64,000 bases of DNA from Minisyncoccota bacterium. Its GTDB lineage: Bacteria > Patescibacteriota > Minisyncoccia > Phycocordibacterales > UBA9973. This document shows positions 3,128 through 56,688 of the stretch, one piece after another; position 1 is the first letter of the stretch; each line of letters opens with the position of its first letter. The stretch lies in contig JBAZSZ010000002.1 of the NCBI GenBank assembly GCA_041662205.1, positions 103,266 to 167,265 on the forward strand. Direction: 5' to 3'. Below the pieces are notes generated by a model. The model saw only the letters and a list, made by a program, of their open reading frames with translations. It did no database searches and was not told the DNA's origin. The translations under genes and the position numbers were made by a program.

Positions 3128-4126
3128 ATGAGACTGTTTTTTATTTTTTTATTTCTTATTTTCTCTTTACTTTTTTCTTCACAGACAGCTTTTGCAGTTT
3201 CTACAACCTCAGCTTCCTCTGATTGCAGTATTACTCTTAAATTAAAAGTAGGTTCAAAGGGTATCGAAGTAGAATGTCTTCAAAGAAAAATAGGGATTGT
3301 GGCTGATGGAAGCTTTGGACCTTTGACTAAAGCTAAAATTGTAGTTTTTCAATCAAATAATGGTTTAAAGATTGACGGAATAGTCGGTCCGCTCACACGG
3401 ACGGCTCTAAATGGTATAAAAGTAGGTAATATTTACCCAGAAGGTTGTATCTCAAATGTAGGATATAGTCCAACGACTGGCAAAAAATGTGATGGTACTG
3501 TAAAAAGTGTTGTAAATAAAGGCTTTAATCCTACTTCTATTCTTACCCCTACTCTTACTCCAAAACTTACTTCCAATAATGTAAATATGGATCAATTTAT
3601 TAAAACAGTGGTAGAAGTAAGTAGAAAATCTGGTTCCAGTGAAGCAAATCTTAAAATCATAGCGGATACTCTCAGGGAAACAATTCTAAATAGTGATGTT
3701 GATTATAATAAAAAATTTGAAGAATTGTTGACCAATGAAAGTAAATTGAGCACTAATTTAAAAACTAATATTTTTGCTTCTGTGTTTGATAAAGTTCTTA
3801 CAAAGACTTTTTCCTTTTTAGGGATTAAGCCTTCTATGGCTTTTGCTGCAACTGGTATACCGTTTGGTGGAGCTTTACTCTTTCCTTTTTTTTGTGAATA
3901 TAATGCAAGCTGGATGATAACTGTTTCACCTCTTCCCCCAACTTTTGTAACCCTTCTCTCTTATTATCCGGGAACTCAAGGATTTGCGAGTTATAATATA
4001 CCTTTTACTCGTTGGTTGCTCGGTGAATATGTAACACCTGGCGTTTGTTTAATACCAGGTGACCCTGTTATTGTTATTCCCACTACAGGTACTATTACTC
4101 CAAAGGTAGGTTCTTCTCCTATTTAG
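3128..4126 (+). CDS. Secreted protein with two putative peptidoglycan-binding (PG_binding_1-like) repeats
   Basis: Signal peptide MRLFFIFLFLIFSLLFSSQTAFA, followed by two repeats of the form GSKGIEVECLQRKIGIVADGSFGPLTKAKIVVFQSNNGLKIDGIVGPLTRTAL. Confidence 0.6.
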   Translation: MRLFFIFLFLIFSLLFSSQTAFAVSTTSASSDCSITLKLKVGSKGIEVECLQRKIGIVADGSFGPLTKAKIVVFQSNNGLKIDGIVGPLTRTALNGIKVGNIYPEGCISNVGYSPTTGKKCDGTVKSVVNKGFNPTSILTPTLTPKLTSNNVNMDQFIKTVVEVSRKSGSSEANLKIIADTLRETILNSDVDYNKKFEELLTNESKLSTNLKTNIFASVFDKVLTKTFSFLGIKPSMAFAATGIPFGGALLFPFFCEYNASWMITVSPLPPTFVTLLSYYPGTQGFASYNIPFTRWLLGEYVTPGVCLIPGDPVIVIPTTGTITPKVGSSPI

Positions 4127-4961
4127 AAGCAAGAGAAATTAGTATTATCCAATCATTGAGCGATAAATCTTCTGCTCTTTTGTTTTCCAGAGATGCCAAA
4201 TCCTTGTTTTGGCAGACATTCTTTAAATTACCAGAGAGTTTTTTTCTTTTATGGGCGAAGCCTGCTTTTACTATTTCCCAAAATTTTTCTTCGTTTATTT
4301 TGTTTTTTATAAAAGTTTTCCTAGAAATATTTTTTATAGAGATAATAGCTGAATCAACTTTTGGTGCGGGAGAAAAATATCTAGCGGGTACCTTCATTAT
4401 TAATTTTGGATCTCCGTAAGCTTTGACTGAAATGGAAAGGATGCTCTCTTTTTGGTCACGAGCGATGATTCTTTTGGCTACTTCATGCTGGACCATCAGA
4501 ACCATAAGTTCTGGTTGATGCAAACCACCTAAAAATTTTTTTAGAATTGCGCCAGTGATATTGTAAGGAATGTTGGCGATTATCTTATAGCGAAGAGATC
4601 TTAAATTTTTAGAATGGTCTGGCCGGGATAGGGACCCGGAGAACCGAGGACTTGATAAAAATTTGAAAATCTCTTCGCTGATATTAAATTCTAAAATATC
4701 CTCATTTATTAAAATTAATTCCCCCCCAGCAATTTCTTTTTCAAACCTTTCTTTTAAAAATTCAAAAAGTTCTCGGTCTTTTTCTACTGCTATTACAGTT
4801 TCAGATTTTTCTAAAAGTTTTTTTGTGAGAGCTCCTTTCCCCGGCCCTATTTCTAAAATTACATCTCCCTTTTTTATTTCACCCGCTTCAATAATTTTTT
4901 TTAAAGCCAGTTCAGACTTTAAAAAATTTTGCCCTAGTGATTTTTTTGCTTTGTGTTGCAT
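4119..4961 (-). CDS. ksgA: 16S rRNA (adenine1518/1519-N6)-dimethyltransferase KsgA/RsmA, carrying an in-frame palindromic element insertion
   Basis: Motifs LGQNFL and EIGPGKGALT (SAM-binding) plus NIPYNIT. The inserted segment SSPRFSGSLSRPDHS is encoded by repeat copy A. Confidence 0.85.
   Translation of the reverse strand: MQHKAKKSLGQNFLKSELALKKIIEAGEIKKGDVILEIGPGKGALTKKLLEKSETVIAVEKDRELFEFLKERFEKEIAGGELILINEDILEFNISEEIFKFLSSPRFSGSLSRPDHSKNLRSLRYKIIANIPYNITGAILKKFLGGLHQPELMVLMVQHEVAKRIIARDQKESILSISVKAYGDPKLIMKVPARYFSPAPKVDSAIISIKNISRKTFIKNKINEEKFWEIVKAGFAHKRKKLSGNLKNVCQNKDLASLENKRAEDLSLNDWIILISLASK
4606..4660 (+). repeat. GC-rich palindromic element, copy A (core ~4614-4652) inside ksgA
   Basis: agaATGGTCTGGCCGGGATAGGGACCCGGAGAACCGAGGACttgataaaa. 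The central CCGGG-ata-ggga-CCCGG hairpin is flanked by the inverted repeats GGTCTGG/CCGAGGACC and by outer ttttnGA/TnAnAAAA arms. Confidence 0.8.
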
Positions 4962-4965
4962 ATAT

Positions 4966-7047
4966 TTATAAGTAAATTGTTTTTATTCCACTAGCCTCCC
5001 CTTCTTTTTCTAATAAATCTGCTGGAATATCAGAAATAAATTCTGATGGAGCATTGATGTTGCGTGATCCAAAAATAGTGCGGAAATTTGCAAAGGATAA
5101 AAATAATTTTCTTCGGGCGCGGGTGAGCGCTACATAGAAAAGCCTTCTTTCTTCTTCACTATCTTCTCCAGACTGTCTCTCTCCTTGTCTTTGGTGCGGG
5201 AAAAGTCCGTCTTCAAGTCCAGTAATAAAAACGTATTCAAATTCAAGGCCTTTTGAGGCATGTACTGTCATTAATTTTATGGCATTTATTGTTTCTTTTT
5301 TCTCCTGATTTATCATTAAAGAATCCTGATCTGAGGCAAGGGAGGCATCTTCTAGAAGTTTTTCTACCCCTGCTCCATTTGTTAAATTGTCATATTTAAG
5401 AGCAAGGGTGGCGAGTTCTTTAATGTTTTCTAGTCTTTCCATATCTTCTTCAGTACCATTTTGTAATTCTTGTTCTATTCCAGATTTTTTGATTACAAAT
5501 TTTATTAATTCACTTGCTTTCAAGTTCGCTATTTTTTCTTTTATTTCTTCTAGTGTTTCGTAAAATTTGCTGATTTTTAACTGCATTTTTATTGGTAAGG
5601 TTTCTTTTTGGTTGGCAAAAATTTTCATCAAAGTTACTTTGCCGATGCCTCGTGCCGGGAAATTTATTATTCTTTTTATGTCAGATAGGCTGTCAGGATT
5701 TAAAGCTGCGCGCAAATATGCGAGAGTGTCTTTAATTTCTTTTCTTTCAAAAAATTTAACCCCTAAAACTTGGTAAGGGATATTATATCGAAGCATCGCT
5801 TCTTCGAGTGCTCGTGATTGGAAATTTGCGCGATATAAAACTGCGACTTCGCTGGCGATGCTTTTGCTCAGGTTCTCGGTCCCCCGGGTCCCTATCCCGG
5901 CCAGACCATTCTCAAAAGCATCACCAGCCCCGTCTATAATTTCTAAAATTTTTGTCGCGACAAATTCGGCTTCATCAGTTTCATCCAGAGCTTCATAGAG
6001 ACTTATCTTTTCACCTTCCACATTTTTTGTAAATAAATTTTTATCTGGCCGGTATTTATTTTTTTTGATTACTTCATTTGCCGCTTCTAAAATATTTTGA
6101 GTAGATCTATAATTTTGTTCTAATAAAATTATTTTGGCATTTGGGTAATCTTTTTCAAAACTTAAAATGTTTTTCAAATTTGCTCCGCGCCAAGAGTAAA
6201 TATTTTGATCGGCATCACCAACTACACAAATATTTTTATTATTTTCAGAAAGTAGCTTAGACATCAAGTATTGCACTTCATTGGTGTCTTGATATTCATC
6301 CACATGGATATATTCCCATTTTTCTTGATAAATTTTTCTGATTTCTGCATTTTCTTTTAATAATTTTGTCGCTTTAAGGAGCAGATCATCAAAGTCTAAA
6401 GAATTCTCTTTCATTTTTTGCTTCTCATATAAATTCCAAACCTGCGCTACTATTTTTCCGAGAGGACTTGAGCCCCCCTCTTCCCTCTCCGCATAATCTG
6501 CTAAATGTACAAACTTTCCTTTTTCTCGCGAGATTATATTTTTTATTTTTTTTGGATCGTATTGTTTTGGATCTATGCCGAGTTCTTTTAAGATATTTTT
6601 AATAAGGGTAGTCGCATCTCCTTCATCTAAAATAGTGAAATATCTTGTAAGTCCTAATAATCTAGCATTTTCTTTTATTATATAAACTCCTAGAGAGTGA
6701 AAAGTGGATACGAAAGGCGCTTCACTGGGAATACTTTTTTGGATGGTCTGGCCGGGATAGGGACCCGGAGAACCGAGGACCTCCGAAAAAGCATTCCCAG
6801 TGAAGCTGTTTTTTATTGCAACATCAATTCTTTCACGCATTTCCTTGGCAGCTTTATTGGTGAATGTCACTGCCAGAATTTTATCAGGAGACACTCCATT
6901 TTTTATTAAATTTACAATTCGGTGCGTAATGGTTTTTGTTTTTCCAGCTCCAGCTCCAGCAATAATCAAAAGTGGTCCCTTCATATGAAGCGCCGCCTCT
7001 TTTTGTTCAGGATTTAGGCCTTTAAGATGTTTTTCGTCTGTATCCAC
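4966..7047 (-). CDS. uvrD: UvrD/PcrA-family ATP-dependent DNA helicase carrying two in-frame palindromic element insertions
   Basis: Walker A GAGAGKTKT, DEYQDTN, and the VLYRANFQSRALEEA helicase motifs. Two extra loop segments, SEVLGSPGPYPGQTIQ and LAGIGTRGTENLS, are encoded by repeat copies C and B. Confidence 0.85.
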   Translation of the reverse strand: MDTDEKHLKGLNPEQKEAALHMKGPLLIIAGAGAGKTKTITHRIVNLIKNGVSPDKILAVTFTNKAAKEMRERIDVAIKNSFTGNAFSEVLGSPGPYPGQTIQKSIPSEAPFVSTFHSLGVYIIKENARLLGLTRYFTILDEGDATTLIKNILKELGIDPKQYDPKKIKNIISREKGKFVHLADYAEREEGGSSPLGKIVAQVWNLYEKQKMKENSLDFDDLLLKATKLLKENAEIRKIYQEKWEYIHVDEYQDTNEVQYLMSKLLSENNKNICVVGDADQNIYSWRGANLKNILSFEKDYPNAKIILLEQNYRSTQNILEAANEVIKKNKYRPDKNLFTKNVEGEKISLYEALDETDEAEFVATKILEIIDGAGDAFENGLAGIGTRGTENLSKSIASEVAVLYRANFQSRALEEAMLRYNIPYQVLGVKFFERKEIKDTLAYLRAALNPDSLSDIKRIINFPARGIGKVTLMKIFANQKETLPIKMQLKISKFYETLEEIKEKIANLKASELIKFVIKKSGIEQELQNGTEEDMERLENIKELATLALKYDNLTNGAGVEKLLEDASLASDQDSLMINQEKKETINAIKLMTVHASKGLEFEYVFITGLEDGLFPHQRQGERQSGEDSEEERRLFYVALTRARRKLFLSFANFRTIFGSRNINAPSEFISDIPADLLEKEGEASGIKTIYL
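5862..5919 (-). repeat. Palindromic element copy B (reverse orientation) inside uvrD
   Basis: ggttctcggtcccccgggtccctatcccggccagaccat, the reverse complement of the family core with variant termini. Confidence 0.8.
6737..6792 (+). repeat. Palindromic element copy C inside uvrD
   Basis: ggATGGTCTGGCCGGGATAGGGACCCGGAGAACCGAGGACCtccgaaaaag. The 39-nt core is identical to copy A. Confidence 0.8.
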
Positions 7048-11218: not shown

Positions 11219-11289
11219 TGCGGGATAGGCGAATCGAACGCCTGCCCAGAGTTTGGAAAACTCTTATTCTACCACTAAACTAATCCCGC
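11219..11289 (-). tRNA. tRNA-Gly (anticodon UCC)
   Basis: Manual fold of the reverse complement. Acceptor GCGGGAT/ATCCCGC, anticodon stem AGAGU/ACUCU with loop UUUCCAA, T-arm AGGCG-UUCGAUU-CGCCU. Confidence 0.75.
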
Positions 11290-11334
11290 TTTCGTTAAAG
11301 CTTCGGCGGGCGAGCCCGCTTAGGCTATAACTTG

Positions 11335-11405
11335 TCGGGCTGCTGGGAATCGAACCCAGTCTAAACGCTCCCAAAGCGCTTGTACTACCGGTATACTACA
11401 GCCCG
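11335..11405 (-). tRNA. tRNA-Pro (anticodon UGG)
   Basis: Manual fold. C1:G72 acceptor CGGGCUG/CAGCCCG typical of bacterial tRNA-Pro, anticodon loop UUUGGGA, T-arm CUGGG-UUCGAUU-CCCAG. Confidence 0.75.
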
Positions 11406-11452
11406 TTAAATTATCAAGCTACAAAAACACATAACTACGCTCATATAATATA

Positions 11453-11863
11453 TCACAAGATAATATCACTTACCACTTTTATTTTCGCTTTTTTGTTTTG
11501 TATATCAAGGAATACAATCAATAGATCCACTTGCCATCCTTTTTCATCAGGTATTTTTTCTGATAAAAGATAAGTTTGTATTGTTCGTGATAAACGTTTA
11601 AGTTTCCATGGGTGCATATTGTCTTCAGGCTTATAGTTATCTTTTGTTCCATGTGAAACATTTTTTAAGGTTTTATGTGCGACTGATTTTACTTCAATAA
11701 AGTGTAATTTATTGGTCTTTTCAGCTACAATATCTATTTCACCCCATTTTTTCGTATAATTTCTATTTAATATTAGAAAATTATGTTTCATGAGAAACCT
11801 TACAGCTATATTTTCTCCAATTTCTCCAGTTTTTTGGGTTTTTGAGGTAAATACTTTTGGCAT
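11453..11863 (-). CDS. yraN: YraN-family (UPF0102) predicted endonuclease
   Basis: 136 aa with the GEIDIVA core typical of UPF0102/YraN. Confidence 0.65.
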   Translation of the reverse strand: MPKVFTSKTQKTGEIGENIAVRFLMKHNFLILNRNYTKKWGEIDIVAEKTNKLHFIEVKSVAHKTLKNVSHGTKDNYKPEDNMHPWKLKRLSRTIQTYLLSEKIPDEKGWQVDLLIVFLDIQNKKAKIKVVSDIIL

Positions 11864-12132
11864 TTTATTTATTGTTTTAAAATAAAATCCTTATTTTAAA
11901 AACAAAAAAGCTGTTTCACGTTTAACATGTTTCACATGAAACATAGTAACAAATTTTTAGTAAATTTTATGTCTTTTACTATAATATCCTTATTTTATAA
12001 GATATATACAGAAAAAATGCTAATAAAAGACAGTTTCATATTGTGTCCTTTATGAACAGTACTAACATAGTTATCCACAATTTTATTAAATCTTTAATTT
12101 ATAAGGTATTATTAAGGGACATCATTTTTTTG

Positions 12133-12203
12133 TGCGGCCAGAGAGAATCGGACTCTCGTCTCATCCTTGGCAAGGACGTGTTCTACCACTGAACCATGAC
12201 CGC
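12133..12203 (-). tRNA. tRNA-Gly (anticodon GCC); the T-loop reads UCCGAUU rather than UUCGAUU
   Basis: Manual fold. Acceptor GCGGUCA/UGGCCGC with one U-G pair, D-stem GUUC/GAAC, anticodon loop UUGCCAA, T-stem GAGAG/CUCUC. Confidence 0.65.
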
Positions 12204-12275
12204 AAATTTATCTATGTATAAAGACCACCGAATATGACCGCAAACTACTTATGTATAAAAACCACCGAATATGAC
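12204..12275. repeat. Two tandem ~34-bp direct repeats, each carrying a pseudo-copy of the first ~17 nt of the adjacent tRNA-Gly(GCC)
   Basis: tatgtataaagaccaccgaatatgaccgcaaa occurs twice. On the minus strand it reads gcggtcatattcggtgg, against the tRNA 5' end gcggtcatggttcagtgg. Confidence 0.7.
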
Positions 12276-12418
12276 CGCAAATTATATTTTAAAAAACTAT
12301 AAACAATTATAATATTTAATTAGAACTAATGCAATTATTAAATTAACCAATTAAATAAAGCTTATTTGTGAGTATTTTAAAAATAATGTATAATATGTAG
12401 TATTATTATATTAATTAC

Positions 12419-12490
12419 GCACTCGTAGTGAAATGGATATCACAATAGTCTTCGGAACTATTATTGAGGGTTCGAATCCCCCCGAGTGCA
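12419..12490 (+). tRNA. tRNA-Arg (anticodon UCG)
   Basis: Acceptor GCACUCG/CGAGUGC, D-stem GUGA/UCAC, anticodon stem AUAGU/ACUAU with loop CUUCGGA, T-loop UUCGAAU. A TATAAT-like -10 lies about 30 nt upstream. Confidence 0.7.
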
Positions 12491-14105
12491 CAAAACAAAA
12501 GTGGAACAGGATGTTAAAAATTTAATATCAAAAACACCCAAAGAAGTTTCACATGTAACTAATACGCTCGAAAAAGATGGTTTTGAGGCATATCTAGTTG
12601 GCGGGTGCGTTAGAGATCTTTTGATGTCTAAGGAGCCAAATGACTGGGATATCACAACTAATGCTAAACCAGAGCAAATTATAAGTCTTTTTGAAAAGAC
12701 TGTTTATGAGAATGGCTTTGGTACAGTAGCTGTGGTTGTTCCGCGTGAAACACATCAAGAGGATGTTTCACATGGAACAAACCCTATTCCCTTGTCAGAA
12801 GAGAAAAATATGATTATAGAAGTTACTCCTTATAGAATTGAAGCAAAATATAGCGATTTTAGACATCCAGATGAGGTGAAATTTAGTGATAAGCTGGAGG
12901 ACGATCTTAAAAGACGTGACTTTACGGTTAATGCCATGGCCTTAAACAGTAAAGGACATCTGGTTGATTTTTTTGATGGTATAAAGGACATTAACGAAAA
13001 GACAATAAAGGCAGTAGGGAATCCAGATGATCGTTTTGCTGAAGATGCTCTCAGGATGTTGCGCGCTGTACGTCTTTCCTGCCAGCTTAATTTTTCTGTG
13101 GCTTATGAAACGATGCAAAGTATTTTGAAAAATTCAGAGTTGATAAAAAAAATTTCTGAAGAAAGAATTCGTGATGAGTTTGTAAAAATAATTATGTCGG
13201 AAAATTCCGCGAATGGAATCGTGATGTTACAAAAATTTAATTTGTTAAAAAATATAATTCCTGAACTAGAAGAGGGAATAGGCTGTGAACAATCCGGTGA
13301 GCATATTTACGACGTTTGGAATCATTTACTTCATGCATTAGAACATGCGACAAACAAGAATTGGTCTTTGGAAATAAGGCTCGCAGCGCTTTTCCATGAT
13401 ATTGGGAAGCCCCGAAGTAGGCGTATTGCGGAGCGAATTGATAATTTATCAGGTCCTCGGTCTTTCGGGTCCCTACCCCGGCCAGACCATGACAAATCAT
13501 CAATTCGCTCCGCAAAGAAAAAATTTACTTTTTACGGTCATGAAGTTGTCAGCACGCGGATGGCAAAAAAAATAATGGAGAGATTAAAATTTCCTAAAAA
13601 AGAAATTGAGTTAGTAGAAAAACTTGTTCGCAATCATATGTTTTTTTCTGACACAGAATTAATCACGCTGTCAGCCGTGCGAAGAATTATTGCAAAAGTT
13701 GGAAAAGAAAATATTTGGTTATTGATGAATGTCCGTGAGTGCGACAGGGTAGGGATGAAGAAAAAAGAAACCCCATATCGCCTTCGGAAGTATTTTGCCA
13801 TGATTGAGGAAGCCCTGAGAGATCCTATTTCTGTCGGACAGTTGAAAATCAACGGTGAATTTATGATAAAAGAGCTTGGAATCACTCCCGGACCACGCAT
13901 GGGGTGGATTTTACATGCATTACTCGAAGAAGTGCTAGATGCTCCGGAGAAAAACACGGTAGAACATCTGTCGGAGTTGGTAAAATCTTTAAATATGTTG
14001 GGGGATACAGAACTAAAAACTCTTGGTCTACGTGGAAAAGAAAAAAAAGAAGAATTAGAAGAAGAAGAGGTTGTGAAGCTTCACAAAAAGCATGGAGTGA
14101 AATAA
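12486..14105 (+). CDS. cca: CCA-adding tRNA nucleotidyltransferase with an HD domain, carrying an in-frame palindromic element insertion
   Basis: GGCVRDLL, RRDFTVNA, and the HD motif LFHDIGKP...FYGHE with about 26 extra residues (..NLSGPRSFGSLPRPDHD..) between GKP and FYGHE, encoded by repeat copy D. The start is a GTG at 12486 (overlaps the tRNA-Arg 3' end by 5 nt) or at 12501; there is no early in-frame ATG. Confidence 0.8.
   Translation: MHKTKVEQDVKNLISKTPKEVSHVTNTLEKDGFEAYLVGGCVRDLLMSKEPNDWDITTNAKPEQIISLFEKTVYENGFGTVAVVVPRETHQEDVSHGTNPIPLSEEKNMIIEVTPYRIEAKYSDFRHPDEVKFSDKLEDDLKRRDFTVNAMALNSKGHLVDFFDGIKDINEKTIKAVGNPDDRFAEDALRMLRAVRLSCQLNFSVAYETMQSILKNSELIKKISEERIRDEFVKIIMSENSANGIVMLQKFNLLKNIIPELEEGIGCEQSGEHIYDVWNHLLHALEHATNKNWSLEIRLAALFHDIGKPRSRRIAERIDNLSGPRSFGSLPRPDHDKSSIRSAKKKFTFYGHEVVSTRMAKKIMERLKFPKKEIELVEKLVRNHMFFSDTELITLSAVRRIIAKVGKENIWLLMNVRECDRVGMKKKETPYRLRKYFAMIEEALRDPISVGQLKINGEFMIKELGITPGPRMGWILHALLEEVLDAPEKNTVEHLSELVKSLNMLGDTELKTLGLRGKEKKEELEEEEVVKLHKKHGVK
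13443..13499 (-). repeat. Palindromic element copy D (reverse orientation) inside cca
   Basis: aggtcctcggtctttcgggtccctaccccggccagaccatgac. The variant central hairpin ttcggg/ccccgg contains one G-U-type mismatch. Confidence 0.75.
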
Positions 14106-19831: not shown

Positions 19832-19838
19832 AGGAAGG

Positions 19839-19970
19839 TTTTTAAAATTCTTTCTTGGCATACTTTTTATAAAGCAATCTATCTGGCGAAGCTTCGCCAG
19901 CGAACTGCTCGGCTCGTCAGCCTGCGCAAGGCTTTCTAAAAAATACGCCTGCAACAAATTTTAAAAATCT
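19839..19970. repeat. Structured GC-rich intergenic element, family T1, copy 1 (downstream of rpsO)
   Basis: tttttataaagcAATCTATCTGGCGAAGCTTCGCCAGCGAACTGCTCGGCTCGTCAGCCTGCGCAAGgctttctaaaaaa, with outer AT-rich inverted arms. It ends at the TATAAT of the NYN gene. Confidence 0.7.
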
Positions 19971-22791: not shown

Positions 22792-22818
22792 AATTCTTTA
22801 TTTTATAAACTTTTCTTT

Positions 22819-22888
22819 GGTACGGATTTTTTGAAGCTTAAAAAATCCTGAAGTTCTCGGCTCGTCAGCCTCGAAACCCCGCGAAAAG
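22819..22888 (+). repeat. Structured intergenic element, family T2, copy 1 (downstream of pnp)
   Basis: GGTACGGATTTTTTgaagcttAAAAAATCCTGAAGTTCTCGGCTCGTCAGCCTCGAAACCCC. It shares the CTCGGCTCGTCAGCC core with T1. Confidence 0.7.
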
Positions 22889-22913
22889 TTATATAATAAA
22901 GAATTAACGCTAT

Positions 22914-24902: not shown

Positions 24903-24955
24903 TTTCCCCCACCCCAGGGATAGGGGAAATCCCCTATCCCTGGGGTGGGGGAAAC
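24903..24955. repeat. Perfect 53-bp palindrome (25-bp arms, 3-nt spacer) between divergent metK and the dksA-like gene
   Basis: TTTCCCCCACCCCAGGGATAGGGGA-aat-TCCCCTATCCCTGGGGTGGGGGAAA. GC-rich in an AT-rich genome. Its GGGATAGGG centre resembles the core of the in-frame element family. Confidence 0.85.
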
Positions 24956-25349: not shown

Positions 25350-26966
25350 ATGAGTTTTGCCAAAGTTTATTCAGCGCAAGTTAATTTACTCAAGGGTTCT
25401 ATCGTGACTATTGAAGTAGATCTCTCAAAAGGGCTCCACTCTTTTAGCTTGGTTGGTTTGCCGGACAAAGCGGTGGATGAATCCAAAGATAGAGTAAGCG
25501 GAGCCATAAAAAATTCTGGCTTTAAATCTCCCAAAGCAAAAAATCAAAAGATAATAGTTTCGCTTTCACCGGCTGATTTGAAAAAGGAGGGCCCTTTTTT
25601 TGATTTAGGAATTGCTTTGTCTTATATGCTAGCGGCGGGTGACGTGAAATTTGATTCAGAGAAAAAGATTTTTTTAGGAGAGCTGGGGCTCGATGGAACT
25701 TTGCGGAAAATCCGTGGGGCCTTACCACTTGCGCAAGAAGCTAAAAGACTTGGTTTTGAAGAAATATATTTACCAAAAGAAAATGCAGTCGAGGCGGCGT
25801 TAGTGGAAGGCATAAAAATTTTTGGAGCAAATAGTTTGCAGGAAGTGGTGAGGCATCTAAGCCCCAATGAGGCCAGCAAAATTTTTTCGGGTCCTCGGTC
25901 TGAAGCCAGACCAGCTCAAAAATCTTCTAGCCTCATTGAGGCTGGAGGATTAATTAATATTCAGCCGCAAACAAAAATAAATTATAAAAAAGAAATATCA
26001 CGGATTGATTTTTCAGATATTCGTGGGCAAGAGGGAGCCAAGCGAGGTTTGGAAATTGCGGCAGCTGGCGGACACAATATCGCCATGTATGGCCCACCGG
26101 GCACAGGTAAGACGATGCTTGCTCGGGCATTTTCTCAACTACTACCAGATTTAGATCTTGATGAGGTTTTAGAAATTACAGGCATTCACTCAGTAGCAGG
26201 AAATACAAATGGAGAGTTAGTTTGTTTTCCTCCATTTCGTTCCCCGCATCATACTTCGTCCTATGTTTCTATTATCGGTGGAGGGACATATCCAAAGCCC
26301 GGAGAAGTGACGCTCGCACATCGCGGAGTTTTATTTTTAGATGAATTTCCAGAATTTGAAAAAAGAGTGATCGAATCTCTGCGCCAGCCACTCGAAGACA
26401 ACATTGTTTCAATTTCGCGCGCCAAAGGAAATGCTTGTTTTCCTTCAAATTTTATTTTAGTCGCGGCGATGAATCCTTGTCCTTGTGGGAACGCGACTTC
26501 GAAACAAAAAGCATGCATTTGCAAACCGTCCGACTTAGATAGATATAAAAGAAAATTGTCTGGACCGATTGTGGATCGTATCGATCTCTGGGTTTCTGTC
26601 GGTAACGTTGATTATAAAAAATTAGGAGGCGATGGGGATGGCGAGAAAAGTGAAAAGATAAAAGAAAGAATAATCAAAGCGCGAGAAAACCAAAAAAATA
26701 GATTTAAAAAATTTGAGAAAGATATTAAGAAAAAAATCACAACTAATAGTGAGATGAATGTAAAAGATCTAGGTATGATGGTGCCACTCGGTGGCAAAGT
26801 GAGAGACTTGCTCGATGATAGTGCAGAACGTTTGAGCTTGTCTGCTCGCGCCTATCATCGGATAATTAAAATAGCATGCACGATAGCAGACTTGGAAAAT
26901 TCTCCTGAGGTAGAAGAGCATCATATTTTAGAAGCGATACAATATCGACCGAAAGTTAATAACTAG
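25350..26966 (+). CDS. comM: YifB/ComM-family Mg-chelatase-like AAA+ ATPase, carrying an internally deleted copy of the palindromic element in its linker
   Basis: N-terminal Lon-like domain, Walker A GPPGTGKT, Walker B VLFLDEF, and a C-terminal Mg-chelatase region. The linker SGPRSEARPAQ is encoded by repeat copy E. Confidence 0.8.
   Translation: MSFAKVYSAQVNLLKGSIVTIEVDLSKGLHSFSLVGLPDKAVDESKDRVSGAIKNSGFKSPKAKNQKIIVSLSPADLKKEGPFFDLGIALSYMLAAGDVKFDSEKKIFLGELGLDGTLRKIRGALPLAQEAKRLGFEEIYLPKENAVEAALVEGIKIFGANSLQEVVRHLSPNEASKIFSGPRSEARPAQKSSSLIEAGGLINIQPQTKINYKKEISRIDFSDIRGQEGAKRGLEIAAAGGHNIAMYGPPGTGKTMLARAFSQLLPDLDLDEVLEITGIHSVAGNTNGELVCFPPFRSPHHTSSYVSIIGGGTYPKPGEVTLAHRGVLFLDEFPEFEKRVIESLRQPLEDNIVSISRAKGNACFPSNFILVAAMNPCPCGNATSKQKACICKPSDLDRYKRKLSGPIVDRIDLWVSVGNVDYKKLGGDGDGEKSEKIKERIIKARENQKNRFKKFEKDIKKKITTNSEMNVKDLGMMVPLGGKVRDLLDDSAERLSLSARAYHRIIKIACTIADLENSPEVEEHHILEAIQYRPKVNN
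25884..25913 (-). repeat. Internally deleted palindromic element copy E inside comM
   Basis: ttttcgGGTCCTCGGTCTgaagCCAGACCAgct. Both termini are retained and the central palindrome is replaced by gaag. Confidence 0.6.
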
Positions 26967-32515: not shown

Positions 32516-33322
32516 ATGATTATCGACAAATACAACAAAAGAGCCAAGAAAATAAATTCACTTTTATGCGTTGGTCTGGATACGGATTTTGCAAAAATTC
32601 CAAAAAGATTTTTGAAAAAGAAATTTCCGCAATTTGAATTTAATAAATGGATTATCGAAGAGACCCACGAATATGCCGCTGCTTATAAACCCAATAGCGC
32701 TTTTTATGAAGCTAGGGGTGATAAAGGAATACGAGAATTAAAAATGACGATGGATTATCTGATAAAAAATCATCCAGATATTTTTACGATTCTTGACGCC
32801 AAGAGGGGGGACATAGGAAATACGAATAATGGTTACGTTGCTTCTATTTTCGATTGGTTTGGCTTTGACGCTTTCACTGTGTATCCATATTTAGGACAGG
32901 AAGCAGTGCAACCGATTTTAGATAGAAAAGATAAAGGAGTGATTTTGCTTTGCCGTACTTCAAATCCTGGAGCAAAAGATTTTCAAGATTTAAAGATTAA
33001 TGGAAAACCACTTTGGCAGATTGTGGCAGAGAAAGTTTCTAAAGAGTGGAATAAGAATAAAAATTGTATGCTCGTCGTCGGGGCGACTTATCCTAAAGAG
33101 ATGAAAAAAATTCGCTCTATTGTGGGGGATATGACTTTTCTAGCTCCAGGCGTGGGTGCTCAAGGTGGGGAATTAAAAGAAATGCTAAAAGCTGGATTAA
33201 ACAGTAAAGGTTTAGGCTTAATAATAAATTCTTCTAGGGGTATAATTTTTTCCAATAATCCAAAAATTGAAGCCAAAAAACTACAAGACGAGATTAGGAA
33301 ACACAAGCAGGAAATTAATTAA
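32516..33322 (+). CDS. pyrF: Orotidine-5'-phosphate decarboxylase (type 2)
   Basis: LCVGLDTD and ILDAKRGDIGNT. Confidence 0.8.
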   Translation: MIIDKYNKRAKKINSLLCVGLDTDFAKIPKRFLKKKFPQFEFNKWIIEETHEYAAAYKPNSAFYEARGDKGIRELKMTMDYLIKNHPDIFTILDAKRGDIGNTNNGYVASIFDWFGFDAFTVYPYLGQEAVQPILDRKDKGVILLCRTSNPGAKDFQDLKINGKPLWQIVAEKVSKEWNKNKNCMLVVGATYPKEMKKIRSIVGDMTFLAPGVGAQGGELKEMLKAGLNSKGLGLIINSSRGIIFSNNPKIEAKKLQDEIRKHKQEIN

Positions 33323-33333
33323 AAAAGAAAATA

Positions 33334-33445
33334 ACTAAAATAGGAAAATATCAAAATTTATAAAGCAATCTATCTGGTGTTGCTACACCAGCGAACTGCT
33401 CGGCCCGTCGGCCTGCGCAAGGCTTTCTAAATTTTTTATTTTCCT
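33334..33445. repeat. Family T1, copy 2 (downstream of pyrF), flanked by a perfect 18-bp inverted repeat
   Basis: aactaaaataggaaaata...ataaagcAATCTATCTGGTGTTGCTACACCAGCGAACTGCTCGGCCCGTCGGCCTGCGCAAGgctttctaaa...tattttcctattttagtt. Compensatory substitutions relative to copy 1 in both internal hairpins. Confidence 0.75.
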
Positions 33446-33631
33446 ATTTTAGTTTTCCACTTTTTCCACTTTTATCTAGGCTTGCTTCTGTGTGTAGAAA
33501 TGTTACTATCATTTTTAATGTATCAACAGAGATTAAAAGAGAAAAAGTCTGGGGAAAAGTTTGCCACTTCTATCTTTTTAAGCTCCATTATCAATATTTT
33601 ATTTTAAAACCCCTTTTGGGGTTATTTTTTT

Positions 33632-44824: not shown

Positions 44825-46597
44825 ATGCAAATTAACGAAGAACAATTAAAGAAATTTATTTTAGATGAAGGGTTGGTATCTGAAACAGATCTCAAGGATG
44901 CATTTAAAAAAGCTGAAATTAAAAAACAAAAAATTGGGGACGTTTTATTTTCAGATGGGAAAATATCTGAAACTGATTTAAAGCGAATAGAGGCTTATGT
45001 TTTAGGAATACCATTCGTTAGTTTGAATGATAAAAAAATAGATTTTTCTGTTCTTTCTTTTGTGCCTGAACCAATTGCGCGCAATTATAATATTGTCGCT
45101 TATAAAAAAAGTGAAAACAGCTTAGAGGTGGCGATGCTTGATGTTGATGACCTGCCGGTGATTGATTTTATTAAAAAACGTTCCGGCTTAAAAATTTTAC
45201 CTAGGTTAACAGATACAGCTTCTATCAGATCTGTCTTGGTTCAGTATCGACAAAGTTTAGAATCTGAATTTCGAGATATTATTCAAAAAGAAAATGCTAC
45301 TTTAAATAATTCTTTAGGAGAAGACAGTGAAGGTTCTGCAGAAAAAACTGGTGAAAAGTCTGAATTGGAATTAAAACAAATGGCAGAGGATCTGCCAGTG
45401 GTAAAAATAGTAGATTCTTTAATTTTTCATGCAATTTTACAAAATGCGTCCGACATTCATATTGAGCCTGGAGAACATGAGCTCACTGTGCGTTACCGAA
45501 TAGATGGAATCTTGCATGACGCCATGGTCCTTGAGAAAAATGCTGGTTCAGGGATAACTGCGCGTATCAAAGTATTAGCCAATTTAAAATTGGATGAAAA
45601 AAGATTGCCCCAAGACGGCAGATTTAAAATAGAACAAAATGGAGAAAAAATTTCTTTTCGTGTTTCTACTCTACCTACTTTTTTTGGAGAGAAGACAGTG
45701 ATCAGAATTTTAAAAGAAAACACCCATGGTTTTTCTTTAGAAGCGCTTGGTTTTCATGGTGAAGGATTAGAGCGAATACATAACTCATTGAAACAAAAAA
45801 CTGGGATGGTGCTCGCTACTGGTCCGACCGGAAGTGGAAAGACGACTACGCTTTATACTTTGCTTGATATTTTAAATAGACCAGAAGTTAATATTTCAAC
45901 AGTAGAAGATCCTGTCGAATATCAAATGCCTAGAGTCAATCAAACACAGGTTAAACCAGAGATTGGTTTAACTTTTGCCAACGGGCTTCGTTCATTATTG
46001 CGTCAAGATCCGGACATTGTAATGGTGGGAGAAATTCGTGATGGAGAAACAGCTGGATTGGCTATCAATGCTTCGCTTACAGGTCACTTAGTTCTTTCTA
46101 CTATTCATACCAACTCAGCTTCTGGTGCAATTCCAAGACTTATAGATATGGGAGTGGAGCCTTTTTTGATAACCGCCACTGTGAAAACAATTCTAGCTCA
46201 AAGACTAGTGCGTCGACTTACAGCTAATAAAGAAAAATATTTCCTGTCTGATGTAGAGATAAAAAATCTTGCAAAGGTTGTCGATTTAGATAGAGTGTTA
46301 GATTTTTTAAAAATTGAAAAAATTGTGAGTGAAAAAGATGATTGGGAAAAAATTCCTTTTTATAAAGCGATAAAAAATGCTGAATTTGAAGATGGATATT
46401 CGGGTCGGGTTGGGATGCATGAAGTATTAAAAGTTACACCCACTATCAAAGAAATGATTATTAAGGGAAGTTCTCAGGATGATATAGAGGCGCAAGCAAA
46501 AAAAGAAGGAATGATGACTATGATTGAGGATGGAGTTTTCCAAGCAGTATTGGGTTTAACTACCCTTGAAGAAGTGTTCCGAGTTGTTTCAGAATAG
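44825..46597 (+). CDS. pilB: Type IV pilus assembly ATPase PilB (GspE family)
   Basis: N-terminal GSPII-type domain, Walker A GPTGSGKTTTLY, Asp box, Walker B IVMVGEIRD, His box. Confidence 0.9.
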   Translation: MQINEEQLKKFILDEGLVSETDLKDAFKKAEIKKQKIGDVLFSDGKISETDLKRIEAYVLGIPFVSLNDKKIDFSVLSFVPEPIARNYNIVAYKKSENSLEVAMLDVDDLPVIDFIKKRSGLKILPRLTDTASIRSVLVQYRQSLESEFRDIIQKENATLNNSLGEDSEGSAEKTGEKSELELKQMAEDLPVVKIVDSLIFHAILQNASDIHIEPGEHELTVRYRIDGILHDAMVLEKNAGSGITARIKVLANLKLDEKRLPQDGRFKIEQNGEKISFRVSTLPTFFGEKTVIRILKENTHGFSLEALGFHGEGLERIHNSLKQKTGMVLATGPTGSGKTTTLYTLLDILNRPEVNISTVEDPVEYQMPRVNQTQVKPEIGLTFANGLRSLLRQDPDIVMVGEIRDGETAGLAINASLTGHLVLSTIHTNSASGAIPRLIDMGVEPFLITATVKTILAQRLVRRLTANKEKYFLSDVEIKNLAKVVDLDRVLDFLKIEKIVSEKDDWEKIPFYKAIKNAEFEDGYSGRVGMHEVLKVTPTIKEMIIKGSSQDDIEAQAKKEGMMTMIEDGVFQAVLGLTTLEEVFRVVSE

Positions 46598-46605
46598 TTA
46601 GTTGC

Positions 46606-46683
46606 GCTTCTTCCAATTTTTCTTCGGCTCATCCTTCTCGGAGTACCGAGCGGGACCCTACCGAAAGAAAAATTGGAAGAAGC
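46606..46683. repeat. Compound GC-containing palindrome between pilB and pilC
   Basis: cttcttccaatttttcttCGG...CTCGGagtaCCGAG...CCGaagaaaaattggaagaag. An 18-bp outer inverted repeat encloses an inner palindrome. The right arm overlaps the possible TTG start of pilC. Confidence 0.6.
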
Positions 46684-51421: not shown

Positions 51422-52419
51422 AAAATATACAAGGGAAAACGGTGCTGGTGCGGGTGGATTTTAATGTGCCTATTAAAAATGGGAAAGTGGAAGATGATTT
51501 TCGCATAAAAAGAGCTTTGCCAACAATTAATTTTTTACTTAAAAAAGGTGCGAAATTAATTTTAATTACTCATCTTGGTAAAGACGGAACAGCAAGTCTG
51601 AAACCAGTGATAAAACATTTTTTTGCAATTTCAAAAATACCTGAAAACAAAATAACTTTTTTTGACAATATCAGAAAATTTCCTGGTGAAATGAAAAATG
51701 ATAAAAATTTTGCCAAAAAACTCTCAACCATGGGGGATATTTATGTGAATGACGCTTTTTCGGTTTCACATAGAAAACATGCTTCATTAGTAACGTTACC
51801 AAAATACTTGCAAAGTTTTGCCGGATTGGAATTTGAAAAAGAAATAGAAAATTTGTCTCACGCTATTTTAAAACCTAAACATCCATTTTTATTTATTTTA
51901 GGCGGGGCTAAATTTTCCACTAAAATGCCTCTCATAAAAAAATACTTAAAATTAGCAGACTACGTTTTTGTCGGTGGAGCTTTAGCCCATGATTTTTTAA
52001 AAGTGAAAGGATGTGAAATCGGTGAGTCTTTGGTCAGTAATGATAATTATGGGATTGAAGAATTATTGAAAAATAAAAAATTGATTATACCTACTGATTT
52101 TATAATGAAAGACGGGGCTATTATAGATATAGGAGAAGAGGCAGTGAAAGATTTAGCTTCTCTAATAAAGAAGTCGAAACTTATACTCTGGAATGGTCCG
52201 CTTGGCAAATATGAAGACGGCGGAGCGAAAGCCACAAAAAAAGCATTGAGGCTGGTTGCAGCTTCTAGAGCTGAAAGTATTATTGGCGGAGGAGATACTG
52301 CGGATTTAATAGATAAAATGAATATAGAAAATAAATTTTCTTTTGTGTCGACCGGAGGTGGCGCCATGCTAGATTTCTTGGCAAATGGAACCCTACCAGG
52401 AATCAAAGCGCTTCGATAA
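51400..52419 (+). CDS. pgk: Phosphoglycerate kinase (compact, 339 aa)
   Basis: VLVRVDFNVP and C-terminal STGGGAMLDFL. Overlaps tpiA by 22 nt. Confidence 0.8.
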   Translation: MRSIKSIKNIQGKTVLVRVDFNVPIKNGKVEDDFRIKRALPTINFLLKKGAKLILITHLGKDGTASLKPVIKHFFAISKIPENKITFFDNIRKFPGEMKNDKNFAKKLSTMGDIYVNDAFSVSHRKHASLVTLPKYLQSFAGLEFEKEIENLSHAILKPKHPFLFILGGAKFSTKMPLIKKYLKLADYVFVGGALAHDFLKVKGCEIGESLVSNDNYGIEELLKNKKLIIPTDFIMKDGAIIDIGEEAVKDLASLIKKSKLILWNGPLGKYEDGGAKATKKALRLVAASRAESIIGGGDTADLIDKMNIENKFSFVSTGGGAMLDFLANGTLPGIKALR

Positions 52420-52795
52420 TTTTTTTGGCAGCTTCTACTGATTCATTATCTTTATATGTTTTTATTGGAAACATAGGTAGAGCATCTTTTAAATATCTTG
52501 GAATTAGGTGAACGTGGAAATGCGGGACGTCTTTGCCTACGACTGATAACTGTACATAATCGCACCCAATTCCTTTTTTAACGGCTAGTATTAATTTTTT
52601 TGCTAATGTAAAAATTTCTGAAATGATTCCATCATCTGCGTCTTGTATCCAGACAATATGCTTTTTAGGAATTATTAAAAGGTGTCCATCGGAAACTGGC
52701 TGGATGTCTAAAAACACCAAAAAATCTTGGTTTTCATGGATTTTTGTGCAAGGGATTTCTCCTTTGACTATTTTACAAAAAATGCAGTTTTCCAT
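52403..52795 (-). CDS. HIT-family (histidine triad) hydrolase
   Basis: CIFCKI zinc-binding region and HFHVHLIP histidine triad. Confidence 0.75.
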   Translation of the reverse strand: MENCIFCKIVKGEIPCTKIHENQDFLVFLDIQPVSDGHLLIIPKKHIVWIQDADDGIISEIFTLAKKLILAVKKGIGCDYVQLSVVGKDVPHFHVHLIPRYLKDALPMFPIKTYKDNESVEAAKKIIEAL

Positions 52796-52812
52796 AGAAA
52801 GTTTTATAAAAT

Positions 52813-52875
52813 AAAGTTTTGGAATGGTCTGGCTGGGATAGGGACCCAGAGAACCGAGGACCTGAGAAAACTTTG
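52813..52875 (+). repeat. Palindromic element copy F, intergenic (HIT gene / recJ), with compensatory stem changes
   Basis: aaagttttggaATGGTCTGGCTGGGATAGGGACCCAGAGAACCGAGGACCtgagaaaacttt. The stem CTGGG/CCCAG replaces CCGGG/CCCGG, a double compensatory change. The outer arms aaagtttt/aaaacttt extend the palindrome to about 63 bp. Confidence 0.8.
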
Positions 52876-52895
52876 ATTTTATAAAACTTTCTATA

Positions 52896-54578
52896 TTGTA
52901 TGCTAAAATTCAATTTATGCAAAGATACGGAGAATTATTGCGAACACTTTTGGAAAAAAGGGGAATTGTTGATGAAAAACAAGCGGAAATTTTTCTAAAT
53001 CCAAATTATGAACGTGATTTTCATGACCCATTTTTAATGCGAGATATGGAAAAAGCTTGTGTGCGTTTATATGAAGCAATAGAAAATAAAGAAAAAATAA
53101 TTATTTACGCAGATTATGATTGCGATGGGATACCTGGGGCAGTTATCTTGACTGATTTGTTTCTATTATTGGGATATAAAAATTTTGAAATTTATATTCC
53201 TCAAAGAAATTCGGAGGGCTACGGACTAAATCTTGAAGCGATAAAACAATTTTCAAAATCTAATGTGAAACTTTTAATTACGGTGGATCTTGGCATTACT
53301 GCAATAAAGGAAGTAGCGCAAGCAGAAGTCGATGGTATAGACGTAATAATAATGGATCACCATTTGCCAAAAGAAACTCTACCTCGTGCTTATGCAATTT
53401 TAAATCCAAAGGTGGATGAATATCCGGAAAAAATGCTTTGTGGGGCGGGAGTTGTTTTTAAATTTGTGCAGGGGTTTATTCAAAAATATAGTAAATATTT
53501 TGACATTAAAGATGGTAGTGAGAAATGGATGCTAGATATGGCGGGATTAGCGACGCTTTCTGATATGGTTCAGCTTACGGGTGAGAATAGAGCTATGGCA
53601 TATTTTGGAATGAAAGTGCTAAAGAAGACTCCTCGTCCAGGATTACAAAAACTTTTAGCAAAAATGAAGATTGAACAGAAATATTTATCTTCTGACGATG
53701 TTGGTTTTATGGTAACACCTAGATTAAATGCCGCCTCAAGGATGGACGATCCGATGCGAGCTTATGAACTTCTTGCCACGAGAGATGAGTCGGAAGCGGA
53801 TGTACTTTCAAATCACTTATCAAAAATAAATGATGAAAGAAAAAATATCGTGAAGGGTATTATGCGTGATGTAAATAAACATATAGATAAAAAATTAGAA
53901 AGTGGAAAAGGGTCTGACGTGATAGTGATAGGTAATCCAGAATGGAAGGTAGGAGTACTGGGACTTATCGCGGGGAAAATATCAGATAAATATAAAAAAT
54001 CTGTTTTTGTATGGGCGAAAGATGAAAATGATTGTATTAAGGGTTCTTGTCGGAGCGATGGATCTGTTTCTGTGGTGGAGCTGATGAGTGAAAACAGTGA
54101 ATCATTTGTGGATTTTGGCGGGCACGAGCTGGCAGGAGGGTTTACTGTTTACGATGATAAAATTCATTTTTTAGAAGAAGCGCTTTCTCTTTCTTTTCAC
54201 AAAGTAAAAAGAGAAAAAAAAGAATATATTGTAGATTATGATATTAAATCTGATTTAGGCATCGTGAATATTAAAAATTGGAAGGAAATAGAAAAAATGA
54301 CACCTTTTGGAATAGGAAATCCTAAACCAGTTTTTTTCTTTTCTGACGTTAAGATAGAAAAAATAAAAAAATTTGGCAAAAATGGATCCGGAGAACATCT
54401 AGAAATTATTTTTTCTGATTCTTCTGGTAAAGTTACAGCAATTTCTTTTTTTTCTGATTGTGATTCTTTTGACGTACCTCTTGTAGAAGATAAAACAGTC
54501 AATCTATTGGCTACATTTGATCTATCTAGATTTAGAGGGAGAGTTGAGTTAAGATTGAGAATAGAGAATATATTATAA
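52896..54578 (+). CDS. recJ: Single-stranded-DNA-specific exonuclease RecJ
   Basis: DHH motifs IIYADYDCDGIPGA and IIMDHH, and the DHHA1 region GGHELAGG. Confidence 0.85.
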   Translation: MYAKIQFMQRYGELLRTLLEKRGIVDEKQAEIFLNPNYERDFHDPFLMRDMEKACVRLYEAIENKEKIIIYADYDCDGIPGAVILTDLFLLLGYKNFEIYIPQRNSEGYGLNLEAIKQFSKSNVKLLITVDLGITAIKEVAQAEVDGIDVIIMDHHLPKETLPRAYAILNPKVDEYPEKMLCGAGVVFKFVQGFIQKYSKYFDIKDGSEKWMLDMAGLATLSDMVQLTGENRAMAYFGMKVLKKTPRPGLQKLLAKMKIEQKYLSSDDVGFMVTPRLNAASRMDDPMRAYELLATRDESEADVLSNHLSKINDERKNIVKGIMRDVNKHIDKKLESGKGSDVIVIGNPEWKVGVLGLIAGKISDKYKKSVFVWAKDENDCIKGSCRSDGSVSVVELMSENSESFVDFGGHELAGGFTVYDDKIHFLEEALSLSFHKVKREKKEYIVDYDIKSDLGIVNIKNWKEIEKMTPFGIGNPKPVFFFSDVKIEKIKKFGKNGSGEHLEIIFSDSSGKVTAISFFSDCDSFDVPLVEDKTVNLLATFDLSRFRGRVELRLRIENIL

Positions 54579-56591: not shown

Positions 56592-56600
56592 TGTTTTTAA

Positions 56601-56662
56601 GGGGTTTCGAGGCTGTCGAGCCGAGAATTTCAGGATTTTTCAAGCTTCGAAAAATTTGTACC
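56601..56662 (-). repeat. Family T2, copy 2 (reverse orientation) between the convergent comEC and sodA genes
   Basis: The reverse complement reads GGTACAAATTTTTCGAAGCTTGAAAAATCCTGAAATTCTCGGCTCGACAGCCTCGAAACCCC. Confidence 0.7.
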
Positions 56663-56688
56663 GGCAAAAATATTACTCTTGATTTTCT

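Follow-up and report, generated by a model that had tools for sequence, protein, structure and literature searches.

What allows a single helicase gene to carry two copies of the same repeat, pointing in opposite directions, and still read as one open frame? The gene is uvrD, and it lies in the 64,000-nt stretch analysed here, which comes from an ultra-small bacterium of the Minisyncoccota (Paceibacterota) (contig JBAZSZ010000002.1; hereafter the window, ~35% GC). Both repeats, designated copies B and C, fall within one open reading frame (ORF; 4966..7047, minus strand) of 693 aa. The initial annotation of this locus had left the choice between a recent insertion and a tolerated structure, and had pointed to the inverted arrangement as a substrate for inversion or hairpin-mediated rearrangement. 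The interpretation we lean towards is that B and C are independently acquired members of a family of 'coding palindromes' of the Nomurabacteria/Paceibacterota, which are translated and tolerated in protein loops and which combine paired arms with an invariant core. The uvrD copies are tolerated passengers and no recent lesion, and what calls for explanation is less an inversion between B and C than a core that does not vary and stems that maintain themselves while differing from locus to locus.

Two hairpins in uvrD and their relatives in the window

We searched the window for the 24-mer GGTCTGGCCGGGATAGGGACCCGG, allowing up to three mismatches, and obtained five matches compared to 0.00 expected from 100 shuffles: cores A (4616-4639, +), B (5884-5907, -), C (6745-6768, +), D (13465-13488, -) and E (52826-52849, +). 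Every copy is flanked by its own inverted repeats of 16-28 bp (16 for B, ~20-25 for C and 22-28 nt for A, D and E), and each is therefore a long hairpin of 78-101 nt. Copy C spans 6719..6806 (+), with arms at 6719-6739 and 6786-6806 and a core at ~6740-6785 whose strand is antisense to uvrD. Its inverted arms extend over 25 nt at 92%, it folds at -54.7/-54.9 kcal/mol (z = -9.3/-11.3), and it scores 100.4 bits with a covariance model that we built from a gap-free alignment of 74 non-identical copies. Copy B spans 5851..5928 (-), 78 nt or 26 codons, with arms at 5851-5866 and 5913-5928 (16 nt at 94%) and a core at 5867-5912 whose strand is sense to uvrD; its score is 92.6 bits and its fold -43.4 kcal/mol (z = -6.1). 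The intervals first assigned to the two copies, 5862-5919 and 6737-6792, contain the conserved cores but fall short of the full hairpins. The predicted folds of B, C, D and E were far more stable than those of shuffled sequences on both strands (z -4 to -11), and that of copy A was weaker (z = -2.0).

Over 81 nt, B and C are inverted relative to each other with 81% complementarity, and 797 nt separate them, so that the two segments are homologous inverted copies, as had been claimed. The longest uninterrupted identity between them, read off the alignment, is 26 nt. Their cores differ at three positions, two of them in a 4-nt unpaired linker (AGAA to GGGA) and the third in helix P2, where a U.G pair is replaced by U-A. 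The differences had been placed at the termini of the element and attributed to its ends, a description that does not survive the alignment. An exact match between C and A, likewise reported, applies to 38 nt (ATGGTCTGGCCGGGATAGGGACCCGGAGAACCGAGGAC); beyond these the two copies differ.

The host gene is a single intact ORF, as first described. It aligned end to end with PcrA (1PJR; E = 2e-152) and is therefore not a pseudogene, and an identical protein from Candidatus Paceibacterota carries the annotation UvrD-helicase domain protein. Copy C is translated as residues ~81-110 (SFTGNAF-SEVLGSPGPYPGQTIQ-KSIPSEA) at a position between TFTNKAA and STFHS, which we call site 1, and copy B as residues 374-399 (AGDAF-ENGLAGIGTRGTENLS-KSIAS) at site 2, just before the LYRANFQSR motif. 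Examples of peptides spanning the inserts are NSFTGNAFSEVLGSPGPYPGQTIQK and ILEIIDGAGDAFENGLAGIGTR. PcrA has no aligned residues at either position, site 1 falling between two aligned stretches and site 2 in an internal gap. An AlphaFold model of UvrD placed residues 84-106 and 374-395 in coil with a predicted local distance difference test (pLDDT) score below 50, flanked by confidently modelled elements; the model was moderate overall (mean pLDDT 64.8) and served no purpose beyond identifying the inserts as coil of low confidence. In frame, free of stops, opposite gaps in PcrA and located in loops at which close homologues differ, the two hairpins are well described as a tolerated structure, the second of the options originally offered.

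Two of the remaining copies are also genic. Copy A (4589..4679, +; 98.1 bits) lies antisense inside rsmA/ksgA (ORF 4119..4961, minus; Pfam RrnaAD match, E = 1.5e-56) and is translated in frame as …ISEEIFKFLSSPRFSGSLSRPDHSKNLRSLRY…, and copy D (13426..13515, -; 84.5 bits) lies inside a CCA-adding/HD-domain gene (cca; ORF 12486..14105, plus), where it is translated as …AERIDNLSGPRSFGSLPRPDHDKSSIRSA… in a loop between HDIGKP and KKKFTFYGHE. Copy E (52794..52894, +; 98.3 bits) is intergenic, between a HIT-family gene (52403..52795, minus) and recJ (52896..54578, plus), directly upstream of the latter, and its inner stem is the compensated variant CTGGG/CCCAG. A truncated relative was found at 25860..25943 on the minus strand (covariance-model match 25847-25946, 32.3 bits, E ~1e-3), in frame in a comM-like ORF (25350..26966; Pfam Mg_chelatase/ChlI match). 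It has the outer core helix GGTCTGGC…CCGAGGACC and its own locus-specific arms, and the inner hairpin is absent. The same short form, recognizable by the peptide LGKNPQT, takes the place of the full form at the UvrD sites of some species (e.g. homologues P0005 and P0056).

A shared core, private arms and the turnover of protein loops

Scanning one genome per species for the exact pattern gave 68 loci, nearly all of them in metagenome-assembled genomes of Nomurabacteria/Paceibacterota, with 1-7 exact-match copies per species-representative genome. The family as assembled from other genomes comprises ~70 further copies in ~45 Nomurabacteria/Paceibacterota genomes at ~25 recurrent sites. Matches in L006 and L035 were discarded as chance, both being on GC-rich contigs in which only a 22-mer was present and the arms and the rest of the core were absent. 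On contigs labelled Saccharibacteria or 'Candidatus Solibacter usitatus' (L008, L016, L017, L020, L034, L042, L052, L054) the element sits in an AT-rich, Nomurabacteria-like context, which in L008, L020 and L034 is a Nomurabacteria-type uvrD gene; these contigs are probably mis-binned or mis-labelled. In L030, two copies flank recA and ftsK in a neighbourhood that, judged by eye from translations, reads recA, ftsK, efp.

Aligned with their flanks, the copies share a GC-rich, structured segment of ~48-60 nt. Across the 74 aligned copies its core is nearly invariant and is laid out as a T-run, n, GAAT, GGTCTGG, CCGGG-ATAGGGA-CCCGG, a 4-nt linker, CCGAGGACC (CC-GA-GGACC) and a TGAnA-run; the linker varies freely and the arms are not shared. 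Arms of 13-26 bp, specific to each locus, carry the core at the tip of the hairpin (family medians, 19 matched bp per arm and 89 nt per whole hairpin), and between loci they have in common just the 5-6 nt of T-run and A-run beside the core. All 19 arm pairs showed many compensatory pair types, and at one inner-stem pair 48 copies have C-G, 24 have U-A and two are exceptions. A scan of the window with Rfam 15 at gathering thresholds detected four tRNAs and no family for the element, and an E-value scan of copy C gave merely generic matches to microRNA-precursor hairpins, far below threshold. A known RNA family was accordingly rejected as a candidate.

Copies were counted as genic only if they were spanned by an open frame. 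By this definition ~50 of the 74 (about two thirds) are genic, all of them in frame and stop-free, and their hairpins add 26-30 residues to the host protein. Of the six possible frames they occupy five (the antisense frames with 20, 18 and 3 copies, two sense frames with 6 and 3); the sixth, which contains TAG and TGA, has none because of the way in which genic was defined. The core is thus read as LGSPGPYPGQT in C, as GLAGIGTRGTE in B and as SGSLSRPDH in A and D, and since the same nucleotides yield different peptides according to frame, conservation of the core does not stem from selection on protein. A check that does not depend on this definition comes from the ~21 intergenic copies, which lie between separate genes, often within terminator-like hairpins of the form A-run…T-run, and none of them was visibly inside a split gene when contexts were inspected, an inspection that included no homology test. 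We read the genic hairpins as being translated through rather than removed from the mRNA. Neither do they look like introns or inteins, being open and in frame and, at 26-30 aa, far too short for an intein. The UvrD homologue P0111 (1073 aa) does have a Pfam intein-splicing domain (PF14890), and the same helicase therefore hosts an intein in some lineages.

Occupancy of the two UvrD sites was surveyed in the 120 closest homologues, all of which are collinear with the window protein. The family is present at site 1 in 20 of the 120 and at site 2 in 10 (six in the orientation of B, four in that of C); both sites are filled in two, and other homologues have site 1 only, site 2 only or neither. 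Because occupancy varies site by site, B and C were acquired independently, as the initial annotation had suggested. The two copies face the same way in homologue P0010 and opposite ways in others. Many homologues have short 'empty' loops such as RERIIAEIQKNAKGQDKIPFV, and unrelated inserts occur at the same positions (LERTLGRSDGDGQRKFSAENFRGES, RGVSQADEPRGSAPRARGDSDP, FSSAHPSRDTEWDPTDKKIE, SLS…ALPLGSSACETPRE), at times two or three in tandem. The loop of the CCA-adding enzyme behaves likewise: it may be empty, or be filled by other families, by the present one facing either way, or by elements arranged in tandem or nested. In one cca gene (L056, ~2953 of DATHJV010000104.1) a small hairpin, ttgaaatctg-ccccggg-acagatttcaa, is nested in frame in the core linker. 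Close UvrD homologues are 93-99% identical outside sites 1 and 2 and a loop at residues ~570-600, and nearly all differences fall within these loops (identity 81% overall vs 93% outside them); the loops are therefore hot spots at which inserts are tolerated. The loop at ~570-600 (window ~5250-5340) is the third hypervariable loop, where differences between close relatives also cluster, and it may be another insertion hot spot.

Hairpins of this general design are not confined to the family of B and C. At least three further hairpin-repeat families in the window combine locus-specific long arms with a conserved GC-rich structured core, and intergenic hairpins of other families lie at 19836-19970, 22792-22905, 33322-33465, 46606-46683 and 56573-56691. 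At least some of the other inserts in the UvrD and CCA-enzyme loops of related species appear to be translated forms of these further families. One pair of alleles shows the gain or loss of a hairpin insert. The uvrD genes of GCA_043812335.1 and GCA_018816985.1 (homologues P0061 and P0113; L073 and L074) are 100% identical in DNA except for a tract of ~350 bp at 60-85% identity, centred on site 2, in which one allele has a 26-codon hairpin insert of another family and the other has none. As a sequence pattern, such a tract is a signature of short-patch homologous recombination.

Inversion does occur, on a smaller scale than was envisaged. What inverts between species is the single hairpin within its own site. 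Entire hairpins lie reversed with respect to the flanking sequence at site 2 of uvrD, in cca of L005 and L056, at the site of copy E (in the window as against its orthologues in L039 and L044) and at a further site between genes. Loss may leave traces as well. At UvrD site 1 of L069 the outer arms alone remain (GTCGGC-TCC-GCCGAC), which looks like a deletion scar, and the cca allele AGAATTCT of L071 may be another. The idea that 'empty' alleles represent virgin sites was dropped, given that L069 at least is scar-like, and the boundaries of the element cannot be defined from them.

The age of the insertions can be gauged from UvrD site 1, where the flanking 4-fold synonymous sites of nine orthologues are 41% identical, near saturation. 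Orthologous arms are related near the core and diverge outward, still paired, through concerted changes of codons. At site 1 the arms read ACT GGG AAT / ATT CCC AGT in the window, GTT GGT AAT / ATT ACC AAC in L062 and L034, GCC GGT AAT / ATT ACC GGC in L045 and GTC GGC AAT / CTT GCC GAC in L060. The right arm in L062, L034 and L045 is also 9 nt longer than that in L008, and the addition is complementary to the left arm. At site 2 the changes in the left arm are synonymous and leave its peptide AGDAF intact, and the right arm tracks it by complementarity (IAS vs ASG), and the arms of the cca loop covary in the same way. Since the sites are filled in many species near synonymous saturation, with site-specific covarying arms, the insertions of B and C are not recent, and that part of the original proposal falls away. 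We also considered whether one arm is native target sequence and the other its inverted copy. Site 2 of UvrD supports this (AGDAF, and a conserved D codon in L043); it is contradicted at cca, where both arms are extra sequence in L056 compared to the empty L072, and at rsmA, where orthologous arms are unrelated.

Origin, maintenance and competing explanations

For the family of translated, tolerated palindromes that we favour, persistence would depend on where a copy lands: the loops would be disordered, permissive surface loops, and copies would survive only there. The arms would be kept complementary, and extended, by template switching within the hairpin or by conversion of one arm by the other rather than by stepwise selection, a suggestion that follows from the clustered, templated-looking nature of the changes, such as the 9-nt arm extension in L062, L034 and L045. 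Spread would be mainly vertical and by short-patch homologous exchange, with rarer moves to new sites through a trans-acting activity that recognizes the conserved core. The window encodes ComM, PilB/PilC, RecJ and ComEC (25350-26966, 44825-47911, 52896-54578, 55083-56591), which together make up a natural-transformation toolkit.

Several results sit uneasily with this account. The core is conserved far better, as judged from its sequence, than a passive passenger should be: a 9-nt core segment outside the search pattern is 100% identical in the nine UvrD orthologues. The covariance model found five full-scoring copies in the window (84-100 bits), then one match at 32 bits, and after that generic hairpins alone, so that the scan of the window revealed no trail of decayed copies between 84 and 32 bits. 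An apparently low copy number per genome and the location of most copies at ~25 recurrent orthologous sites agree better with vertical inheritance under constraint than with active transposition. Pfam scans of the 50 window ORFs detected no transposase, merely a XerC/D-like recombinase, and there was no consistent target-site duplication, 57% of copies having no flanking direct repeat of at least 3 nt. The recombination tract of P0061 and P0113 involves a hairpin family other than that of B and C, and template switching is read from sequence patterns. IMG/VR viral contigs contained no exact core match. All of these weigh against a tolerated, mobile passenger. A phage or plasmid vector was rejected on the last of them, and flanking direct repeats of 5-7 nt were in slight excess (13.5% of copies vs 4.3% of controls).

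The strongest rival, which we regard as possible although a good deal less probable, is that the core serves the host as a nucleic-acid signal and that selection retains it wherever there is room for it, genes included. It could be a structured site in the DNA, either the tip of a cruciform or a duplex recognized by a dimeric protein, with a role in uptake, recombination, repair or chromosome organization. A core at 100% identity against 41% at synonymous sites, a bimodal distribution of covariance-model scores with no decayed copies, and reuse of the same orthologous sites across ~45 genomes are what such a signal would predict, and the presence of the core in both orientations and five frames leaves protein-level selection with no explanatory role. 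Copies lie in or beside uvrD (two), recJ, recA, ftsK and comM; a parS-like cluster and the minimum of GC skew are no more than 8 kb from four of the five window copies; one hairpin site forms the centre of a recombination tract; and genes for ComEC, ComM and PilB/PilC are present in the genome. However, the same architecture and the same protein loops are common to no fewer than four unrelated core families, at times in tandem or nested, and such crowding is typical of selfish DNA. The sites are empty in many close relatives, position and orientation are not fixed with respect to genes or replication direction, and 1-7 exact copies per genome are too sparse for a general uptake signal.

Two further explanations fare worse. 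It is improbable in our view that B and C go back to two recent events in which a mobile element inserted, and that uvrD, because they are inverted, is liable to inversion or to rearrangement mediated by hairpins. The inverted pair itself and the independent occupancy of the two sites among homologues fit this scenario, but both sites are filled across many diverged species, the longest uninterrupted B/C identity is short at 26 nt, and homologues with the copies in the same and in opposite orientation both exist, so that orientation is apparently unconstrained. Inversion between B and C would destroy uvrD, and the collinearity of all 120 homologues gives no sign that this or any hairpin-mediated rearrangement between the copies has taken place. 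Less probable still is that the hairpins are intervening sequences which the mRNA loses, perhaps through RNase III-type cutting of the long stem and subsequent ligation; the finished proteins would then be without the inserts, and the stems would be preserved as the processing substrate. Near-perfect stems of 13-26 bp kept by covariation, stable folding on either strand and freely evolving arm peptides would agree with excision. On the other hand, excision would make it needless for ~50 genic copies to be all in frame and stop-free, no gene is visibly split by a copy counted as intergenic, and no Rfam family matches. The distribution of G.U pairs carries little weight here: there are 97 on the core strand vs 67 on the opposite strand overall, an excess that does not follow the mRNA strand (in antisense copies, 52 on the core strand vs 36 on the mRNA strand), but RNAfold continues the pairing past the real arms, which makes the test noisy.

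A more specific and rather tentative proposal, which goes beyond the favoured account, is a 'loop cassette' in which the cores of several families are centred in self-maintaining, locus-specific palindromes, whose arms template switching would keep perfect and lengthen, and can be flipped, swapped between families or deleted with a palindromic scar. The core would be recognized by a trans-acting DNA enzyme or by an uptake or recombination system, and the palindromes would act as hot spots of short-patch exchange in competent bacteria of the candidate phyla radiation (CPR), reshaping the surface loops of essential proteins, among them UvrD, the CCA-adding enzyme, RsmA and ComM.

We compared the family with known repeats. 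[quoted passage not shown] Here, in contrast, the terminal arms differ at every locus and no target-site duplication is consistent; among the 50 window ORFs, Pfam identified no parent insertion sequence or transposase. Repetitive extragenic palindromes (REPs) are, as their name says, extragenic and have a conserved stem sequence, whereas two thirds of the copies described here are genic and their stems are not conserved. No gene for a Y1 or REP-associated tyrosine transposase (RAYT) was found in the Pfam scans of the window ORFs. The likeness to REPs and BIMEs with their RAYT transposases, and to IS1397-type elements, which insert into the loops of palindromes, lies in hairpin recognition, interspersed copies and terminator-like hairpins, the intergenic copies here occurring in A-run…T-run hairpins. 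MITEs such as Correia, ERIC and BOX resemble the family as small, interspersed, hairpin-capable repeats of non-coding derivation that are sometimes genic and have no transposase of their own (PMC10969869). The GC clusters and translational-bypass (byp) elements of yeast mitochondria are also GC-rich hairpins that invade coding regions of an AT-rich genome (PMC6649704); byp elements are untranslated, the ribosome hopping over them, whereas every genic copy here is in frame and open.

Two systems come closer. The coding palindromes of Nematomorpha mitochondria are long, near-perfect inverted repeats in translated genes, coding in both arms and gained and lost between species, and conversion or template switching has been proposed to keep their arms perfect (PMC6649704). 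Arm identity there is apparently maintained by these processes and not by function, and the paired-arm pattern is seen here as well: the uvrD arms of 16-25 nt match at 92-94% within an intact ORF, and orthologous arms differ yet stay paired. Nematomorpha palindromes have no loop sequence common to loci and both their arms encode conserved regions of the protein, unlike the present hairpins, which share a conserved structured core at all loci and come as additional sequence inserted into variable loops. Of the known systems, the Rickettsia palindromic elements (RPEs) are the closest; they insert in frame into Rickettsia genes (PMC1779305, PMC10969869). Like them, the family consists of short palindromic repeats in a reduced, AT-rich genome, is inter- and intragenic, in frame and translated, occurs in housekeeping genes and is one of several families per genome, and some RPE insertions are likewise older than species divergence (PMC1779305, PMC10969869). 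RPEs are 100-150 bp long with a consensus over their whole length (PMC1779305), compared to the ~48-60 nt conserved here, almost invariantly. They are also reported to lose their repeat identity with time (PMC6649704), whereas here the locus-specific arms stay paired by compensatory change. Their hosts are Rickettsiales and not Patescibacteria/Paceibacterota. The element is not an RPE, a distinction that is made by description and not by comparison with an RPE hidden Markov model or consensus. It represents a previously undescribed family of coding hairpin repeats with a conserved, shared structured loop; a full-text literature search found no earlier description in CPR/Patescibacteria, which is not proof of absence.

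If this account is correct, streamlined CPR genomes, commonly regarded as having little mobile DNA, harbour an entire repertoire of hairpin repeats that are translated, and these repeats are the main source of length and sequence variation in essential enzymes that are otherwise 93-99% conserved. The same 48 nt read in five frames would amount to a natural experiment on the tolerance of proteins to arbitrary loop insertions, and a DNA palindrome maintained against coding constraint could be used to test template switching or arm conversion in bacterial genes. The near-invariant core points to a protein partner, such as a transposition, uptake or recombination factor, and candidates might be found by phylogenetic profiling. 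In practical terms the inserts inflate the apparent divergence of orthologues and are potential traps for assembly and alignment in CPR metagenomics.

Neighbouring features of the window

Five parS-like sites matching TGTTNCACGTGAAACA with up to two mismatches lie at 11645-11660, 11912-11943 and 12737-12779 (16 strand-hits vs 2.1 expected). Two of them are inside the cca gene, and the cluster adjoins a tRNA cluster (11219-12490), where cumulative GC skew reaches its minimum (~10-12 kb). The window probably spans an origin-proximal centromere region. Between divergent metK-like and dksA-like genes there is also a perfect palindrome at 24903-24954, with arms of 25 bp (TTTCCCCCACCCCAGGGATAGGGGA and its complement). 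It contains GGGATAGGGG, which is almost the same as the apical-loop motif of the uvrD element, GGGATAGGGA.

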